45,137 nt of DNA, from the sequence record PV775410.1. One strand, given 5' to 3'. Below the pieces are notes generated by a model. That model was not told the DNA's origin. It worked only from the letters and a program-made list of their open reading frames with translations, and did not search any database. The first letter of the stretch is position 1. Each line of letters begins with the position of its first letter. Source of the stretch: Escherichia phage vB_Eco_Sem3. This document shows, one piece after another, positions 2,807 through 38,280 of this stretch. Position numbers and translations under genes: made by a program.

Positions 2807-4705
2807 TCACTTAGGCAGGGAAGCTAGTGCTTCCTGCATACGCTTGATAGTCCTACGCATCAACGCAGCCTCTAATATCAGTACTTCCTCGTAACGAATA
2901 CCGTAGCGGGAACCTGCTGGTGTAATCAGTTTACGAGAGCCATTGGCATCTTCCTCGTATACATCATCCCAACTGTCGAAGCACAAGAAGCCATAGCGGT
3001 GTGCATCTATGCCGTGACGTTCGAAAGCCTCCTTAGCTCGCTGAGCGATGATACCGAAGTGCCATCTAGCTGAGTCTGCACCCTTCTCCTCAACACGATC
3101 CAAATACTGAAACTGCACAAAGTCAACTTCAGACCAAGCATCCAGTAAGGCATCTGATATAGTAAGAGGTTCTGTTTTACACCGAGCATCTGAGGTGACA
3201 GTGAATGCTGCTTGAGTAAAACCGCCAGACCATGCCCGACTGGCGGAACCTAATGCATATGTACCAGTACTATCTGGGGTCATTGCATCAGCACCTAACT
3301 GCAAAAAGCCTGTGCTACTGGTAGAAAGACGCACGTTACCGTTGGTGAGGGACACTGTCCGAGAAGTACCATCAGAAGTAAATAGGCGAACTTGAGAAGA
3401 AGTGCCCCCACCTACAGCTAATGACACAGCACCATCTCCAAGCATTCTGTACTTATCAGCAGAAGTAAGAACACCTGAAGGGAGTGACATGGACTTAATC
3501 CGCCATTCGAACCTACCTGACATACTACCTATGTACTGCCCTAAGGCAGGTGCGTGCACTACGTTACTATTATTAGTGCCGTCAATAGTAGCTGCACCGT
3601 CAATAGTACTAGCAGAACTGAGAATGTCGTTTCTCCTGCCAGGGTGCTTTACCTCTACGAAGTTACGGGTAGAGCCGGATTCGAAAGTAATAACACCTGT
3701 AGCACTGTAGCTAGGAAATACAGACGCATAGTTGTTATTAGCTGTACCTATAAAGCGTGCAATTGTAGCAGTCTGCCCTTGTCCTAAAGAGTTAGTACCA
3801 TCACATCCTGACATAAGCACATTATTTATGACGTTATCAGATCCCTCTACGGTAACACCATGAGCCTGCCTAGCATCAGAAGTTGAGTAATCTACGAGCA
3901 CGTCTGATATTAAGTTCGTACTTCCTTTGCCTGCAACAACCGCTGCATACTTAGGGTTATTAGCCATCACCCCACTGATAAGGTTATTAGAAGGAGCTAT
4001 TGGCCCTTCAGTGCCGTTGTAAGTTACATGCTGGCAATCTGCCCCTATAACATTACTGACTATGTTGTAACTGGCTGTACCTTTCAACTCTACTGCTCCG
4101 AACTGAGGGTAGTTCTTAGCAATGACGTTATCTATGAGGGAGTTAACTGAGGAGTCAGCAAGTACGCATCCGGCTGCCTTATTAGTAGCATAGCCTGAAT
4201 AGCTACCTCGAATACCTTTAATCATAAGCCCCTCAGGTGGCGCATCATTAGGGTATGCGATTAAACTGAAACCAGTACCTTTAACGTTTGAGAAGTTAAC
4301 GTCACTTACAGTAACATCACTTCCACCAGCAAGAGATACCTGCTGTCCCTGAGTTGTATCAGTCGCCTTATTACTTTCTACCGTAATATTACTTAAGCGA
4401 CCTGCACGTAGATTGTTAAATACTAAGTAGTTACCTGTACTGGAACGGTGACTTAGCACGCCACTACCCCTACCGTCTAAGTTACAGTAATTACTATTAA
4501 TACCAGAGCTAGAGAATACACCATCTGAGACTGTGACAGCTTTCTGAGAGTTTAATGAAGCAGCTATAACCTCCGTATCATCAGTAGTGGCGTCACCTGC
4601 AGCACCAAACGGCTTTGATGTTAAAACTCTCGCATCAAGGTACTCATACAAAGATTGTCCTTTATGCAAGATTCCTTCAGTATTAGGTTTGGTTAATTTA
4701 GCCAT
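2807..4705 (-). CDS. Tailspike protein 1 with C-terminal intramolecular chaperone (peptidase S74-type autoprocessing) domain
   Basis: Start at MAKLTKP (RBS GGAG; track ORF extends 20 codons further upstream). Beta-helix-like body; C-terminus …SDARCKTEPLTISDALLDAWSEVDFVQFQYLDR…FGIIAQRAKEAFERHGID…GFLCFDSWDD resembles the autocleaving chaperone domain of endosialidase-type tailspikes. Confidence 0.8.
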   Translation of the reverse strand: MAKLTKPNTEGILHKGQSLYEYLDARVLTSKPFGAAGDATTDDTEVIAASLNSQKAVTVSDGVFSSSGINSNYCNLDGRGSGVLSHRSSTGNYLVFNNLRAGRLSNITVESNKATDTTQGQQVSLAGGSDVTVSDVNFSNVKGTGFSLIAYPNDAPPEGLMIKGIRGSYSGYATNKAAGCVLADSSVNSLIDNVIAKNYPQFGAVELKGTASYNIVSNVIGADCQHVTYNGTEGPIAPSNNLISGVMANNPKYAAVVAGKGSTNLISDVLVDYSTSDARQAHGVTVEGSDNVINNVLMSGCDGTNSLGQGQTATIARFIGTANNNYASVFPSYSATGVITFESGSTRNFVEVKHPGRRNDILSSASTIDGAATIDGTNNSNVVHAPALGQYIGSMSGRFEWRIKSMSLPSGVLTSADKYRMLGDGAVSLAVGGGTSSQVRLFTSDGTSRTVSLTNGNVRLSTSSTGFLQLGADAMTPDSTGTYALGSASRAWSGGFTQAAFTVTSDARCKTEPLTISDALLDAWSEVDFVQFQYLDRVEEKGADSARWHFGIIAQRAKEAFERHGIDAHRYGFLCFDSWDDVYEEDANGSRKLITPAGSRYGIRYEEVLILEAALMRRTIKRMQEALASLPK

Positions 4706-4784
4706 GCTATCTCCTATTACTTTCCAACCCTCCCTATGAAGATTGGCTAGTAATAGGCCGCTCAAAAGAACGGCGCTATCTTAT

Positions 4785-4807
4785 CTCTTCTATAGTGTCC
4801 AGTAAAT
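4785..4807 (-). promoter_or_regulatory. Phage RNAP promoter (late class, CCAGT variant) upstream of tailspike 1
   Basis: Minus strand reads ATTTACTGGACACTATAGAAGAG, close to the SP6 promoter ATTTAGGTGACACTATAGAAG. Confidence 0.7.
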
Positions 4808-5381: not shown

Positions 5382-5726
5382 CTACCATCGTGCACACCCG
5401 TCACGTACATCAATATGAGTAAAGGAGTTATACTTACCAATCCCATATTTGCCTTGGTACTTATCAGTAAGATACTTATGTACATCAGAAGGTAAGATGC
5501 CTCGTACCTTAATGTCAGCAGCCTTACCAGTAAGATGCATGGAGTTCTTAGCTCCTCCTACATTAGCATTGTGCTTAGCACAGCGGTGCCCCGAAGTGAT
5601 AACTACAGGAGAACCAAAGTGCTCACGCACATCTGTGACTACCTGTAGTAATTCAGCATCAACAGTGGATGTACCGCACCCACAACGGCAAGCGAACTCA
5701 CGGCGCTTGAAGTATTTGTTAAGCAT
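5382..5726 (-). CDS. Endolysin, L-alanyl-D-glutamate peptidase (peptidase M15 / VanY-like zinc peptidase)
   Basis: Start at MLNKYFKRREF (RBS GGTGGAG; TAATG overlap with the upstream gene stop). Motifs SGHRCAKHN…MHLTGKAADI…FTHIDVRD match the His/Asp/His zinc site of M15 peptidases. Confidence 0.8.
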   Translation of the reverse strand: MLNKYFKRREFACRCGCGTSTVDAELLQVVTDVREHFGSPVVITSGHRCAKHNANVGGAKNSMHLTGKAADIKVRGILPSDVHKYLTDKYQGKYGIGKYNSFTHIDVRDGCARW

Positions 5727-6019
5727 TATTCTCCACCTGCTGGAGTAACGGCTGACGATTCCATACCAGTTACATCCCAAGAGTCTGTTGGTTCACTACC
5801 ACGTGCAACAGCAATATGCATGGTTGTGTCATCTCTCTCAACAGCAACCATTGCACCTTTCTGCTTACCTGACAGGTGTTTGATGTTGATAGGGTGATCT
5901 TTACTCTTAAGGTCTGCTTCTTTAACAACAGGCATCGGGATTGCCGTTGCAATAGTTTGTACTGCTTTTACTCGAAAAGCCTGACCCGTAACAGAACCTG
6001 TAGTACCATATTTAGCCAT
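5726..6019 (-). CDS. Hypothetical protein, 97 aa (paralog of 6038-6316)
   Basis: Strong RBS AAGGAGG; shares PV(V/I)K.E..K…SGKQKGAMV…IA.A..G…W with the neighbouring ORF. Confidence 0.6.
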   Translation of the reverse strand: MAKYGTTGSVTGQAFRVKAVQTIATAIPMPVVKEADLKSKDHPINIKHLSGKQKGAMVAVERDDTTMHIAVARGSEPTDSWDVTGMESSAVTPAGGE

Positions 6020-6037
6020 GTAATCTTCCTCCTTATC

Positions 6038-6316
6038 TTAAACTGGGTTAACAGTTGGTTCCACTGTTACTAACTTCCACTCTGAATCTTCTTTGCCATC
6101 AACCGCGATAGCAATCTTCAATACACCACCTTCCACTTCAAGGCACACCATGGCCCCTTTCTGTTTACCTGATTTGGTGGCATCATTAATAGCATTGCTT
6201 TTCTTACTAGCTTCCTCTTTTTTGATTACCGGAAGCATTAGTTCTTCACTTACAGGTTGTACCTGCTTTCTCTTAGACTTACCTGTTAATGGTTGACTAC
6301 TATAATCATTAGCCAT
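6038..6316 (-). CDS. Hypothetical protein, 92 aa (paralog of 5726-6019)
   Basis: Start at MANDYSSQ (RBS AGGAGAGAGAC); the track ORF has a 22-codon upstream extension without an RBS. Confidence 0.55.
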   Translation of the reverse strand: MANDYSSQPLTGKSKRKQVQPVSEELMLPVIKKEEASKKSNAINDATKSGKQKGAMVCLEVEGGVLKIAIAVDGKEDSEWKLVTVEPTVNPV

Positions 6317-6453
6317 TGTCTCTCTCCTATTATGTAAATATAGTAAGGTAGTAAGGAATAGGGTGTACAGGAGTACACCCATACTAAGGCATACCTATAT
6401 AACCTAGGTTAACCTATATATTACCTATTATTTTCTCTTATTATCTGGGCCTT

Positions 6454-6476
6454 CCTTCTATAGTGTCCAGTAATTA
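6454..6476 (-). promoter_or_regulatory. Phage RNAP promoter (TAATTACTGG variant) overlapping the terminase large subunit stop codon
   Basis: Minus strand reads TAATTACTGGACACTATAGAAGG. Confidence 0.6.
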
Positions 6477-8372
6477 ATAAGTCCTTGAAATCCTTGCAGA
6501 AAGTGTATTTCTGCTTGCCGATTTATTTCGGTAGTTCTGCCCGTAAACTCGCTGCTGCATCGCTACGGAAGTGTTGGTCACTCTTCGCTCAGTACCGTAA
6601 TCCCCATATAGCATTGCCCTGCGTAGATGAGGTGTGTTCATAGCATGGATGTAATCTCGCATCTCCTGCGCTCTGAGGCGATTAATCCGTGTAACCTCGT
6701 CATAGTCTATCTGAGAAGTTAATTGCCGTATAGCGCCATACAGGGCGTCTAGGCGGTCATCGTGCCGGAGGCTGTTCTTCTCAATCGTTATGTTCGACAT
6801 TTGATTGAAAAGACTGTAGGACATGCGTAGTTCAAGCGGATAGTGCTGTACCGACTCAAAGTCTGACTTCACCATCTCTGCATTGAAGATAAGCCTATGT
6901 GCTGCCATGAGCGGCTCCAGCGTCTCAATGATACGCAATTCTTTCTGTCCGGTGGCGTAATCTTCTTCCAGAGTTACAGGCCACTCTCGTTCAAAGTACG
7001 GCTTAATTACCGCCTCAAACGCGCCATGACCAAAGTTCTTCTCAATGAATACCTCTTTAACACCCGCCTGCTTTGCGGCCTGCACAATGCGATTCAGGGA
7101 CGACTCTCGGTATCCGCCAGGTACACCAAAGCACTGATACACATAAATGAATGTGCCGTGCAGGAATACGATGGCTACACCCGTCTCATCTCCGTTCTTA
7201 CCACCACCTGCAGGGTCAATATACATAATCTTGCGGGAGACAGCACCCCATTCGTATGGGCGAGCTACAGGTCTGTACATGAAATCCGTAGGCTTGTTAC
7301 CATACTTAGGTGCATCACCAATTATGTTTATGGAATCATTACTCCACGTAGGCATCACAGGGACTTCCTCTGTACCAAACGAGGTGAAGATTAGATTGTT
7401 CAGGCGTAATGGGTATCTGTCAGCATCCATCATGCGAGTGTTAAGCATGAACTGAAGCTGGAACTTAGCAGCACCCTGAGAGATTTCCTTCTCAATCAGG
7501 ACTTCATCATCATACATTTCAGGGGCACAAGGTGCACCACTATTACCATCCAACCCGTACCCTGAGCGAAGTGCGGGGTTGTCCTTCATATCTTGAACAA
7601 TCATAGGTGCAAGGAAGTCGCCATAACATTGCTCTTGCTCTACTGAAGGGTAACGCGCAGTCCAGATACGAACAGAGTAACCACGAGCAGGTAGGTTGTT
7701 GTAGATAGAGTTTACGTTCTGAGGTGTACCAAGGTAAATGATATCTCCAAACTGGTTGATAGATTCAAACTCCTTAGTCAGTTCCTCAAGCAAGGCACGG
7801 CCCGCTGCCGTACGAGCATTCTGCATCGACTCTACGTCATCCGCTAGAATAATATCAGCACGAGCACCCTGCATACCTGCTTCGATTGAGTAACAGGATA
7901 CAGAAGGAGACTTATCACTACCACGTAGGGTGTAATGAATCTCAAACGCCTTAACGGATGCACGGTCCCCAGCGTAGATATCCGGCAGCATAAACTCAAG
8001 AAAGTCTAAGCCACGGAAGATTTTAACTACCCAACCTGCGATTTCCTCTGCTCGCTTGGCGTTTTGGGACACAACCATGATACGCTTATGCGGTTCATGA
8101 ATAATACGGAAGACCGTATAGATTGCTGATAGTGTTGTCTTAGCGATACCACGAGGCGCTTCGATGAGGCGGTACTTGTGTCCGTAAAATAGGAACTTCA
8201 AGATATCAGCCTGCATACGAATCAGATGAGGGTTGCCTGCAATTAAGTTATGAATAACTGTATCTGCAAAGAGAAGCAAACCTTCCGCTGTGTAAGGAAA
8301 GGTCTGCTGTAACTCCTGTAGCATCTCCCATCTGGCAAGAGCCTCCGCTTGTGATTCTCTTGCCTTAGCCAT
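6474..8372 (-). CDS. terL: Terminase large subunit
   Basis: About 632 aa; ATPase plus nuclease architecture typical of T7 gp19-like terminases; RBS AAGGAGGA; located after the small terminase gene. Confidence 0.85.
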   Translation of the reverse strand: MAKARESQAEALARWEMLQELQQTFPYTAEGLLLFADTVIHNLIAGNPHLIRMQADILKFLFYGHKYRLIEAPRGIAKTTLSAIYTVFRIIHEPHKRIMVVSQNAKRAEEIAGWVVKIFRGLDFLEFMLPDIYAGDRASVKAFEIHYTLRGSDKSPSVSCYSIEAGMQGARADIILADDVESMQNARTAAGRALLEELTKEFESINQFGDIIYLGTPQNVNSIYNNLPARGYSVRIWTARYPSVEQEQCYGDFLAPMIVQDMKDNPALRSGYGLDGNSGAPCAPEMYDDEVLIEKEISQGAAKFQLQFMLNTRMMDADRYPLRLNNLIFTSFGTEEVPVMPTWSNDSINIIGDAPKYGNKPTDFMYRPVARPYEWGAVSRKIMYIDPAGGGKNGDETGVAIVFLHGTFIYVYQCFGVPGGYRESSLNRIVQAAKQAGVKEVFIEKNFGHGAFEAVIKPYFEREWPVTLEEDYATGQKELRIIETLEPLMAAHRLIFNAEMVKSDFESVQHYPLELRMSYSLFNQMSNITIEKNSLRHDDRLDALYGAIRQLTSQIDYDEVTRINRLRAQEMRDYIHAMNTPHLRRAMLYGDYGTERRVTNTSVAMQQRVYGQNYRNKSASRNTLSARISRTY

Positions 8373-8671
8373 CAATCCTCCTTAGTGAATTGAATTATCT
8401 TACCACTGGATGCCTCTCGGATAGCCTTGAGGCGCTTAGATAACTTGGACTCTTCCTGCTGTGCAGCAGGTGTGGCGGTAATGCCGTTATCAAGAACCCA
8501 CTTACACATCGCACCAATATCCTTACCAGACACTAAATGTAATGCTGCATCAGGGTCTTCTTCTATAGTGTCCAGTATTGCCTGTGCTTTCTTATTGAAG
8601 ATTTTGGTAATAGCACCATGCAGAATGCCAACCTCATCCTCTGTAGCTGCATGTTTATTGTGTACGCTCAC
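8372..8671 (-). CDS. terS: Terminase small subunit (99 aa, GTG start)
   Basis: RBS GGAGGGAG 6 nt before GTG, immediately after the holin stop; position equivalent to T7 gene 18. Assigned by position and size, not by motif. Confidence 0.5.
   Translation of the reverse strand: MSVHNKHAATEDEVGILHGAITKIFNKKAQAILDTIEEDPDAALHLVSGKDIGAMCKWVLDNGITATPAAQQEESKLSKRLKAIREASSGKIIQFTKED
8557..8580 (-). promoter_or_regulatory. Promoter-like sequence inside the small terminase gene
   Basis: Minus strand reads CAATACTGGACACTATAGAAGAAG: 17-nt core conserved, upstream AT-rich part divergent. Confidence 0.4.
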
Positions 8672-21307: not shown

Positions 21308-21331
21308 TCCCTTCTATAGTGTCCAGTAAAT
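21308..21331 (-). promoter_or_regulatory. Phage RNAP promoter upstream of the major capsid gene
   Basis: Minus strand reads ATTTACTGGACACTATAGAAGGGAGA. Confidence 0.75.
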
Positions 21332-29822: not shown

Positions 29823-29844
29823 TCTTCTATAGTGTCCAGTAAAT
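29823..29844 (-). promoter_or_regulatory. Phage RNAP promoter
   Basis: Minus strand reads ATTTACTGGACACTATAGAAGA. Confidence 0.7.
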
Positions 29845-31525: not shown

Positions 31526-31547
31526 TCCTTCTATAGTGTCCAGTAAA
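31526..31547 (-). promoter_or_regulatory. Phage RNAP promoter
   Basis: Minus strand reads ATTTACTGGACACTATAGAAGGAA. Confidence 0.7.
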
Positions 31548-35374: not shown

Positions 35375-36064
35375 TTAGATATTCACGTATGTTTCTTCAG
35401 TAACAATAGGGAGGTACAGTAACTCTTCATCATTCAAGATGTGAAGACCTTTCAACCCTTGCTTACGAATAATACCTTCTATAGTGTCGGCAAAATGCTT
35501 ATTAATTACACGTCGTTGCGTACCGTGTTCTGTGATTGCATGGTCAACATCCATGATTCGTACAGGTACATTTGGATGCATCATGGCTTCGCCAATCTTT
35601 ACCATAGCTTGTCCTGTGGATTTACCAAGAGCACGAGTGTTAAACTGCGTAACACCTAGTGCAGTGCCACATTGCTTAATCATTTCACTTTGAGTCTTAC
35701 CAGTGATTACATTGCGACGCTCTTTCTTGAGTGTGGTTTTCTTTTCTGCCATGTACTCTGCTAGTGTTTGAGGACCAGCACCATAATAAAGAGGGTATAA
35801 TAGCATTTTATGCAGCTGGCGGGCACACTTATCGCAAATCTCATCGTGTACGCACTTACATTGATTGCTTACCTCTCCAATCTTCTCAAGGTAGTTATGT
35901 GCTGATTCCTTTTGATAAGCCTGTCTAATACCATTACTGTACTCTACATAGTAGCTGTTTTCACTTACATTAGTCACAGTACCACGGCAACGATATCTAC
36001 GTGAGGTTACATTGATGTTACGAACATAATCACCTACATTCAATACTAATTTATACATAATCAA
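35375..36064 (-). CDS. Hypothetical protein, 229 aa, with Cys cluster (C-x-C-x5-C-x2-C)
   Basis: …NQCKCVHDEICDKCARQ… suggests a zinc-binding site; no recognisable catalytic motif. Confidence 0.55.
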   Translation of the reverse strand: MIMYKLVLNVGDYVRNINVTSRRYRCRGTVTNVSENSYYVEYSNGIRQAYQKESAHNYLEKIGEVSNQCKCVHDEICDKCARQLHKMLLYPLYYGAGPQTLAEYMAEKKTTLKKERRNVITGKTQSEMIKQCGTALGVTQFNTRALGKSTGQAMVKIGEAMMHPNVPVRIMDVDHAITEHGTQRRVINKHFADTIEGIIRKQGLKGLHILNDEELLYLPIVTEETYVNI

Positions 36065-36292: not shown

Positions 36293-38280
36293 TAAAACTC
36301 CTGTTCATCGTCAAAAGTTGTCTCTTCTATAGTGTCCGGTAAATCCGGCACTTCTTGTTGCCTTGCTTCACCTGTATCAAATGACTTAGTACGGGCTTGT
36401 GGTTCCATTAAACGTCCGGTTTGAATGTCACCCTTAAGCATGACCTTGGTTCCAGTGTAGATACCTTGGTCGCGGTCTTTGACACATGAGATGTACGTGG
36501 TAGTCCGTTCATCAAGCGTTTCAGCTCTTGTATTACGCTCAATCCCCAAGGCGTAAGATGCCCAGAATCCGATAGCGCCTGAACCTCGGAAGTCAGAAAG
36601 GATAACCTCGCCACCTTCTTCGTGTTGGGTACGGTTTGCCGGAGGACGTGTAAGGTGTGATACAAGGAATATAGTAACCGGGTGTCGGTCTTTGATAGTA
36701 CCAATCCGCTTGACGCATTCATCAAGTGCACCAACCTTCCCACCAAAAGCACGCTCATCTAATTTAATCCCCGTTAAGTTATCAATGATGATATTAGAAA
36801 TGCCCATAGCCTCAAACTCTAGGCAAGTTTGCTCTACCTTTTCCATCGAATAGTCACCCTCTAGGTCAGCTACAAACAGCTTACCTGTATCAGCTACATA
36901 ATCAATGGCGGCGTTAGCCTCTTCCTCGGTGTAGTCGAACACCTCACGGTATCCATCTTCTTTCGGGTCGTTGGTTGGCGGTAACTCAATACGCTTATCA
37001 ATCCACTTGCCGATAAAAGCACGGGACACCTTGACCATCGGGTCTTCTGTAGAAATGATGCCTACAGATTCACCGTGTTCTTCAATGAGGTGCTTAACTA
37101 CTTCACGAAGGAACTCAGTCTTACCCACACCAGAGCCTGCGCCTACAATGATAAGTTGGTTCTTACGAATACCTAGCGTTACCTTGTTCAGCTTAGGCCA
37201 AGGCCATGATAGTCCTTGCTCTGGACGTGCAGCCTTGAGCTTATCCCTTTGAGATGCGATAGATTTAATCTGGCTACCAAAGACTTCATCAGATGACTTG
37301 GCATTAAACCATGCATCTACAAACTCTTTAGCCTTGCCAGCCATCAATGCCTTGTTAGCATCTTTGCAACCAGATGGATATTCGAGGATGTAGGATTTGC
37401 CAGGAAACAGGCGAGCAGCTTGTTGGTTCTGCTTCTGCCCCACCTCGTCGCCATCAAAGCCCCATATAATCTTCTTGAATTGGGCTATGTGCTCACGGTT
37501 TTGCACTATCTCTTCAAGGCAAGACTCACCTTTATTGACAGACCATACATGGTATGGCTGACCTTCCCACTTAGTACCTTTGGCAGAATCAAGGAGCATC
37601 TGCTGCGCTGCTAGTGCATCAAGTTCACCGCCTACAATAAGCAAGCAATCCTTTCGTCTCCCCTTGTCTAACACGTGAGACAAAGTATTCATACCGAAAA
37701 GATCTTGCATGCCAAAGAGTTTACCTAAATGACCAAACTTAAAATCTTTAGGTAATGTGCGACACTTAGCTCCTACTAGCTCACCTTTCTCGAAGCGTGG
37801 ATAGTAATGCCGCGAGACTCTACCCTCTTCATCGTGTCCGACACGTACATCATACAATGCGCAAATGTCGCCGCGAATGTGTCTGGAAACAAGGTTCTTA
37901 CGCTTAAGCGTGAGGAACCATTCAACATCAAGTTTCCACTCTGCTTCTTGGTCTGCCCTTTCTTGCTCATTCATGACCTCCCAACGGTCTTTCATACGCA
38001 TACCACCAAGAGCGATGGCGCGTAGCTTAGGGTCGCTTATCTTCCCTTCCTTCTCCATCTCTTTGAATTGAGAAGGTGTGTATTTGATATTGCCAGTAAT
38101 AGGCAACTCGGTTATCTCGATGCCTCCCTCTGGCTTATGATAGTAGGGTCTACCATTATCATGAAAGTGACCACGGTTACAATAGCCAGCACCATCATCA
38201 AATATCATGAGATGATTGCCGGATTTATCGTGCCCATTCTTCTGGCAGGCAGGGCACGGGATGTTATTAATAATAGCCAT
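36292..38280 (-). CDS. Bifunctional DNA primase/helicase (T7 gp4-like)
   Basis: N-terminal zinc ribbon (…CPACQKNGHDKSGNHLMIFDDGAGYCNRGHF…), Walker A …VGAGSGVGKTEF…, acidic C-terminus ending …DDEQEF. Confidence 0.9.
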   Translation of the reverse strand: MAIINNIPCPACQKNGHDKSGNHLMIFDDGAGYCNRGHFHDNGRPYYHKPEGGIEITELPITGNIKYTPSQFKEMEKEGKISDPKLRAIALGGMRMKDRWEVMNEQERADQEAEWKLDVEWFLTLKRKNLVSRHIRGDICALYDVRVGHDEEGRVSRHYYPRFEKGELVGAKCRTLPKDFKFGHLGKLFGMQDLFGMNTLSHVLDKGRRKDCLLIVGGELDALAAQQMLLDSAKGTKWEGQPYHVWSVNKGESCLEEIVQNREHIAQFKKIIWGFDGDEVGQKQNQQAARLFPGKSYILEYPSGCKDANKALMAGKAKEFVDAWFNAKSSDEVFGSQIKSIASQRDKLKAARPEQGLSWPWPKLNKVTLGIRKNQLIIVGAGSGVGKTEFLREVVKHLIEEHGESVGIISTEDPMVKVSRAFIGKWIDKRIELPPTNDPKEDGYREVFDYTEEEANAAIDYVADTGKLFVADLEGDYSMEKVEQTCLEFEAMGISNIIIDNLTGIKLDERAFGGKVGALDECVKRIGTIKDRHPVTIFLVSHLTRPPANRTQHEEGGEVILSDFRGSGAIGFWASYALGIERNTRAETLDERTTTYISCVKDRDQGIYTGTKVMLKGDIQTGRLMEPQARTKSFDTGEARQQEVPDLPDTIEETTFDDEQEF
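36321..36344 (-). promoter_or_regulatory. Phage RNAP promoter, CCGGT class
   Basis: Minus strand reads ATTTACCGGACACTATAGAAGAGA; embedded in the 3' end of the primase/helicase gene. Confidence 0.65.

Follow-up and report, generated by a model that had tools for sequence, protein, structure and literature searches.

Two Tandem Paralogous Small Proteins Encoded between the Terminase and Endolysin Genes of a K1-5-like Phage as Probable Virion-Surface Accessory Proteins

The window, i.e., the whole stretch of 45,137 nucleotides from Escherichia phage vB_Eco_Sem3 (PV775410.1) that was analyzed here, constitutes the complete genome of a K1-5-like podovirus (Autographiviridae, Molineuxvirinae, Vectrevirus), and its minus strand carries nearly all the genes. 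Two adjacent small genes, designated ORF2 and ORF1, were found between the large terminase and endolysin genes. The 1.2 kb surrounding them are 100% identical in Escherichia phage vB_Eco_Sem1 and Klebsiella phage vB_Ka_Sem4 and 93% identical in phage K1-5, in which ORF2 and ORF1 correspond to genes 41 and 42, respectively. The features of the locus are as follows:

6474–8375, large terminase gene, upstream neighbor of ORF2.
6454–6468, minus strand, candidate phage-RNA-polymerase promoter core GGACACTATAGAAGG, 6 nt downstream of the large-terminase stop codon.
6393–6427, minus strand, four phased TAGGT repeats, about 10–11 nt apart, in the transcribed leader.
6361–6380, minus strand, leader stem-loop GGGTGTAC-TCCT-GTACACCC with an 8-bp stem, found by a terminator-like scan.
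6324–6328, minus strand, ORF2 ribosome-binding site AGGAG.
6038–6316, minus strand, ORF2, class A paralogue (K1-5 gene 41; orthologue of Kp7 gp45), 92 aa, 9.9 kDa, starting MANDYSS.
6028–6035, minus strand, ORF1 ribosome-binding site TAAGGAGG, the same 8-mer as that of the major capsid gene.
5726–6019, minus strand, ORF1, class B paralogue (K1-5 gene 42; orthologue of Kp7 gp46), 97 aa, 10.2 kDa.
5382–5726, minus strand, M15 endolysin (Peptidase_M15_3, E = 5e-33; phrog_894 endolysin), given as context and not a member of the family.

The stop codon of ORF1 overlaps the ATG of the endolysin gene (TAATG), and beyond the endolysin lie a 49-aa holin-like gene, a spanin gene, and then the tailspike genes. 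The original prediction had placed the pair between terminase and endolysin, beside the lysis genes and with the tailspikes downstream, and these neighbors were confirmed by ORF, PHROG, and Pfam assignments. A six-frame profile scan found exactly two copies of the domain in the window. A longer version of ORF2, beginning at an in-frame ATG at position 6382 (114 aa), was rejected, as this start codon has no ribosome-binding site, falls within the leader hairpin, and is not used by annotated orthologues. The first tailspike ORF (2807–4765, minus strand) is listed from an upstream TTG; comparison by eye with the 1899-bp K1-5 gp46 gene indicates that it likely starts at an internal methionine (MAKLTKPNTEG...).

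The promoter core GGACACTATAGAAGG is a perfect 15-nt copy of the consensus, and the identical 15-mer is found ahead of the major capsid gene (21310–21324). When up to three mismatches were allowed, 12 matches were found in the window, against 1.2 expected, and 11 of them were on the minus strand. The sequence ACTATAGAAG is kept at the same position in K1-5, SP6, PP1, and PM93, and Kp7 has GTATAGAAG. This element is predicted to drive a unit composed of gene 41, gene 42, endolysin, holin, and spanin. Other exact or one-mismatch copies of the core GGACACTATAGAAG[GA] were observed on the minus strand at 4786–4800, 8559–8573, 21310–21324, 29823–29837, 31527–31541, 35475–35489, and 36323–36337. Since the copy at 4786–4800 directly precedes the first tailspike gene, the block from gene 41 to the spanin forms a separate promoter-to-promoter unit. 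An abundant late product fits both the promoter of the pair and the ribosome-binding site of ORF1, as each is identical to its counterpart at the major capsid gene.

The leader of this predicted transcript carries further signals. The pattern TAGGTN{4,10}TAGGT gave three overlapping matches in the leader and 8 in the whole window, compared with 0.65 expected, and the AGGT blocks of the leader are conserved in six phages. A hairpin is found at the same position in K1-5, Kp7, SP6, PP1, and PM93, with stem sequences that differ and a folding energy of −13 to −15 kcal/mol in each case, and may act as an mRNA stabilizer or a processing site. These signals suggest that the leader could be a protein-binding array and/or an RNA processing or stabilizing element for this late transcript. 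Over its 135 nt, the leader is unusually conserved in six phages of different Molineuxvirinae lineages.

According to the original prediction, the two proteins might play a role in lysis timing, in virion decoration, or in superinfection exclusion. As lysis proteins, they would be non-structural late products that cooperate with the lysis cassette and might, for example, regulate endolysin/holin timing. The ORFs fall into one promoter-defined unit together with the endolysin, holin, and spanin genes, the TAATG overlap joins ORF1 to the endolysin start, and the slot directly upstream of the endolysin is kept in K1-5, SP6, Kp7, PM93, and PP1. However, neither protein contains a signal sequence or a charge-free hydrophobic stretch able to span a membrane. 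The maximum 19-residue Kyte-Doolittle mean was 1.12 for ORF1 and 1.64 for ORF2, the latter being just above the usual cut-off of ~1.6, so that this value alone does not exclude a segment, but the ORF2 peak probably lies over a charged, beta-strand-like stretch (GAMVCLEVEGGVLKIAIAV), and the GRAVY values are negative for both ORFs (−0.28 and −0.46). Hydropathy analysis of ORF1 and ORF2 revealed no transmembrane segment or lipoprotein signal of the kind found in a holin, antiholin, or spanin, and the genuine holin and spanin are separate ORFs. Structural genes are nothing unusual at this genome end, which also holds the tailspike genes, and in phages Reminis and CB5A, family members are found apart from the endolysin or adjoining fiber genes. 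Two observations described below also argue against a lysis function: the orthologues in Kp7 are, according to a preprint sentence and a GenBank label, virion proteins, and paralogues carry Ig and knob display modules. We consider lysis timing to be unlikely, adjacency and the TAATG overlap being what speaks for it, and a role in superinfection exclusion found no support.

ORF1 and ORF2 are real paralogues. BLASTP aligned them with 29 identities over 87 positions (33%), 56% positives, and one gap (E = 2e-14), and their Smith-Waterman score of 122 stands against 27.0 ± 5.0 (maximum 54) in 2000 shuffles (z = 18.8). Both match phrog_2725 (E = 2e-44 and 9e-37). The paralogy at about one-third identity that had been claimed is therefore borne out, and the pairwise alignment that had been proposed as its check found the similarity to be significant. 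The conserved core previously described (PV[VI]K..., SGKQKGAMV, IA.A, and W) also coincides with the columns that are invariant or nearly so in an alignment of 91 sequences, namely T11, G12, P30, S50-G51-K52-Q53, A72, and W81. Within the N-terminal arm, T11 and G12 are invariant, and R16, K18, and Q21 are present in 90% or more of these sequences. The two proteins belong to the PHROG 2725/Kp7 gp45-gp46 family, as the similarity spans the ~90-aa domain from end to end, with its T-G, SGKQ, and W motifs, and the genes occupy the slot directly downstream of the large terminase gene, behind their own late promoter.

In the sequence databases, 110 cluster representatives were found for ORF1 and 94 for ORF2, nearly all of 90–100 aa and mostly on ~44-kb phage contigs. 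The maintenance of this length in more than 200 representatives, mostly from contigs of this size, points to purifying selection. Versions of gene 41 or gene 42 that carry a frameshift or are truncated (P0202, P0204, P0106, and P0176) were observed on contigs of about 20–45 kb, and P0204 reads through a lysine-codon run near the A-run at approximately 6225–6230 of the window. These versions could be sequencing errors; if real, they would hint that the proteins are dispensable. A seeming A/B hybrid (P0110), with a class A N-terminus and a class B C-terminus, was set aside. In each of two independent assemblies (L013 and L014), the gene is separated from the end of its contig by 44 nt, and this terminal position makes it probable that the assembly collapsed over the stretch coding for the shared SGKQKGAM, a natural one-gene variant being less likely.

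These ~95-aa proteins go under the name 'acetyl-CoA acetyltransferase' in PHROG 2725 and in the RefSeq entries of K1-5, K1E, SP6, PM93, LL11, and AAPEc6, and the gene table of UAB_Phi78 lists a 'Putative Acetyl-CoA acetyltransferase'. We give virtually no credence to ORF1 and ORF2 being thiolases, for which the label itself is the sole argument. No Pfam family was matched at E ≤ 1, and so no thiolase domain was found, no NCBIfam match came near its cut-off, and no PDB sequence was matched. Thiolases are about 390 aa long, and the proteins encoded here are 92–97 aa with a predicted fold consisting of a small beta-sheet and two short helices. By Pfam, NCBIfam, and length, neither an N- nor a C-terminal thiolase domain is present, and a thiolase identity is refuted as far as sequence and fold allow. 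Our literature search found no paper giving a basis for the name, which looks like an annotation error passed on from record to record. Carried along in RefSeq and in annotation based on PHROGs, the wrong label would falsely imply an auxiliary metabolic gene.

SP6, Kp7, PP1, and PM93 each encode one class A (gene 41-like) protein and at least one class B (gene 42-like) protein. The A-A and B-B scores across phages and genera exceed the A-B score inside one phage, and the two classes form separate orthologous groups in Vectrevirus, Zindervirus, Acadevirus, Axomammavirus, and the Kp7 group, all within Molineuxvirinae. Because the within-class scores between phages are higher than the A-B scores within a phage, the duplication must be older than the split of several Molineuxvirinae lineages. 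The original prediction of an in-situ duplication followed by divergence thus holds with regard to the tandem duplication itself; the event was not recent, as orthologous A and B classes are common to several lineages.

In many relatives, the terminase-endolysin slot contains a third gene:

Kp7 gp47, 178 aa, third paralogue with the domain and an Ig domain.
Raoultella phage P3a, 237 aa, third paralogue.
Metagenomic contig, 438 aa, third paralogue.
SP6 gene 44, 81 aa, ending soon after the SGK motif, apparently a truncated copy.
PP1, an extra single-domain copy.

In some Vectrevirus genomes, the third paralogue is encoded by an insertion of ~670 bp between gene 42 and the endolysin gene. The presence of this insertion varies among genomes that are otherwise >93% identical, and in Raoultella phage vB_Ro_P3a (L002, 1927–2640), its product of 237 aa matches phrog_32357 and has a C-terminal module without an assigned fold. 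SP6 gene 44 (L008, 2735–3170, together with gene 45) has the class C motifs TGQRS...SGKREG, is followed by the small ORF 45, and, judged by its sequence, looks like the truncated remnant of a class C gene. The six-frame profile scan found no third paralogue in the window phage, which would have lost the third gene and kept two proteins that consist of the anchor only.

A profile search over 1.84 billion representatives retrieved 232 relatives, and 146 representative relatives were analyzed as sequences. Most of them (104/146, median 92 aa) have one copy of the domain; three copies were detected in one chain in 24 (median 283 aa) and two copies in 17, most of which are also 256–290 aa long. Fifteen of the single-copy proteins exceed 130 aa, and 13 of these carry the domain at their N-terminus. 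In some proteins, the C-terminal addition is an Ig I-set domain homologous to the Ig of the PDB 'Decoration protein' chains 8zvi and 5lxk, which we take to be T5 pb10; for Kp7 gp47, the matches to these two chains (E = 6e-17 and 2.8e-16) cover residues 82–176 only. In others, it is a Phage_tail_NK knob (Sf6-type, PF16532; E = 1.7e-30 and 5e-43), and further long relatives carry C-terminal modules without a recognized identity. An N-terminal domain followed by such a C-terminal module would correspond to the usual anchor-plus-display layout of virion surface proteins.

For the fused proteins, whose contigs are short, the genome context is known in one case: a three-copy gene (L006) immediately follows the gene of a large-terminase homologue (43% identical), in the same slot as the separate genes. 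When repeats 1–3 of the fused proteins were scored with class HMMs, all of them matched best with class C, which is the most diverse HMM, so these scores give no one-to-one assignment of the repeats to A, B, and C. A tblastn search with a three-copy protein matched, among cultured phages, only SP6-like Molineuxvirinae. Other searches found homologues in Ralstonia phage Reminis, in Marinomonas phages CB5A and CPP1m, and in further Autographiviridae, namely Vibrio phages VEN and Vc1, Aeromonas phage MJG, and Pseudomonas phage Njord. A protein of 794 aa with eight weak matches (P0331) was discarded, as it looks like an unrelated repeat protein.

The AlphaFold2 model of ORF1 consists of a small beta-sheet and a short helix, with a moderate mean pLDDT of 73.7 and values of 47–53 for residues 1–20. 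The three-copy protein P0206 was modeled with a pLDDT of 85.3 and a pTM of 0.82 as three equivalent units joined by low-confidence linkers, which correspond to the conserved N-terminal arms; the fold predicted from the two models is a small beta-sheet with two short helices. The pTM of 0.82 indicates a defined mutual packing of the three units. Because the arm is conserved and yet has a low pLDDT, also in the linkers of the fused protein, it is expected to become ordered only on binding a partner. Searched against the PDB sequences, neither the two ORFs nor the family profile had a meaningful match, and a Foldseek search against BFVD returned only uncharacterized homologues in other Autographiviridae and a few larger proteins carrying the domain. 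No fold shared with a solved decoration protein of the gpD, Dec, or Soc type was found. The Sf6-type knob is an obligate trimer. The three-copy chains, the packing of P0206, and the fused gene in the same slot hint at a trimer, which would be the most likely state of the family.

Evidence concerning the virion comes from Kp7, in which gp45, gp46, and gp47 are encoded in the same terminase-endolysin slot and are labeled in GenBank ON148527 as 'minor capsid protein', the third as 'minor capsid protein with Ig-domain'. One sentence of a preprint states that the three proteins were identified by mass spectrometry and BLAST from silver-stained gel bands of purified virions (bioRxiv 10.1101/2024.05.19.594906). 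By BLASTP, ORF2 shares 45% identity with Kp7 gp45 (E = 5e-21) and ORF1 shares 47% with Kp7 gp46 (E = 2e-19), and the family profile aligns with residues 5–90 of gp47 with an hhalign probability of 97%. The presence of the window proteins in the virion is thus extrapolated from Kp7 orthologues at 45–47% identity, for which that preprint sentence and the GenBank label are the sources. Our literature search retrieved no usable virion proteomics or capsid cryo-EM for K1E, K1-5, or SP6.

These results lead us to favor, as probable, the idea that ORF1 and ORF2 are abundant late accessory proteins of the virion surface (decoration or minor capsid proteins), probably trimeric and most likely located on the capsid shell. 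Virion decoration, among the roles originally suggested, is the one supported by the Kp7 orthologues reported in virions, within the limits of these sources, and by the Ig-like and knob modules on sister paralogues. The compact beta-rich core would oligomerize, most likely as a trimer, and the unstructured N-terminal arm (T-G-x3-R-x-K-x2-Q) would, together with the (V/I)TP tail conserved at the C-terminus, attach the oligomer to the particle. The docking surface would probably be the T=7 capsid shell; we infer both the role of the arms in docking and the choice of the capsid over the neck or tail. In relatives, the third paralogue would be anchored by the same N-terminal domain and would display an Ig-like or knob adhesion module. 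Against decoration, it must be counted that the genes sit with the lysis genes and not with the capsid genes, and that ORF1 is translationally coupled to the endolysin.

Alternatively, the capsid shell may not be where these virion proteins sit; they may instead be attached to the portal collar, neck, or tail, forming small whiskers or tailspike-adaptor accessories, for instance. The PDB entry 7y3t contains seven chains of the Kp7 major capsid protein and only those, and no PDB chain, including those of this entry, matched the family profile. Either the family proteins were not modeled or they are not icosahedrally ordered on the Kp7 capsid, as no PDB chain matches despite the existence of 7y3t. 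The neck or tail is a real rival, although we regard such a location as rather improbable. A late function in host interaction or anti-defense, with the proteins packaged only incidentally, would be in line with their small size, fast evolution, and variable copy number and with a position near the genome end. However, the genes have a capsid-type late promoter and ribosome-binding site, the invariant motifs hold across distant Autographiviridae, structural-type fusions exist, and, according to the preprint, the Kp7 proteins were among the virion proteins from excised gel bands, so that we hold this function to be very improbable.

Returning to decoration of the particle surface, a more specific proposal, which we put forward tentatively, is that the family forms a trimeric decoration anchor with a new fold in which the paralogues are non-redundant, either as an A/B/(C) hetero-trimer or as homotrimers at different quasi-three-fold sites of the T=7 shell. 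The hetero-trimer would be mirrored by the single-chain three-domain proteins of uncultured relatives, and each trimer would then carry one display module. If true, the SP6/K1-5-type therapeutic phages would possess a modular and swappable display scaffold that was overlooked through a wrong enzyme label.

Phages of the K1-5, K1E, and SP6 type are in wide use both as model systems and as candidates for therapy against encapsulated E. coli, Klebsiella, and Salmonella. Should the products of genes 41 and 42 be abundant and dispensable on the particle surface, they would be natural sites for phage display or for swaps of adhesion modules and likely targets of neutralizing or clearing antibodies, and particle stability may be affected. 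The three-copy fused relatives offer an inexpensive way of approaching the oligomeric state that these proteins are likely to have. As ORFs, the genes have been on record since K1-5 and SP6 were sequenced, and a homologous set was detected in Kp7 virions according to the preprint cited above. What is new is the ancient two- or three-paralogue set, the single-chain three-domain relatives pointing to a trimer, the modular display architecture, a family with no solved fold, and the debunking of the enzyme label.

Among known systems, the closest are gp45, gp46, and gp47 of Kp7, which belong to the same family, lie in the same slot between large terminase and endolysin, and share the invariant T-G, SGKQ, and W with ORF2 and ORF1. 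Kp7 differs by its third paralogue with an Ig domain, which is absent in the window phage, and virion presence was tested in Kp7 only; no structure or location of its family proteins has been published or deposited. The Sf6-type tail needle contributes the knob (PF16532) that ends some of the third-paralogue relatives, an added module that is absent from the window, and the coiled coil of the needle is unrelated to the N-terminal domain of the family. The layout of T5 pb10 and T4 Hoc, in which a capsid-binding domain is combined with an Ig-like display, is matched by the third paralogue Kp7 gp47, but only the Ig module is homologous, and the two proteins of the window have no such module. Lambda gpD and phage 21 SHP, phage L Dec, T4 Soc, and phi29 gp8.5 are likewise small, late, abundant, and accessory, a trimer being in our case suggested by the fused relatives. 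The N-terminus of gpD is disordered when unbound, and the N-terminal arm of the ORF1/ORF2 family resembles it in being conserved but predicted to be disordered in the unbound state. As in Dec and gp8.5, some members of the family extend into a displayed module.
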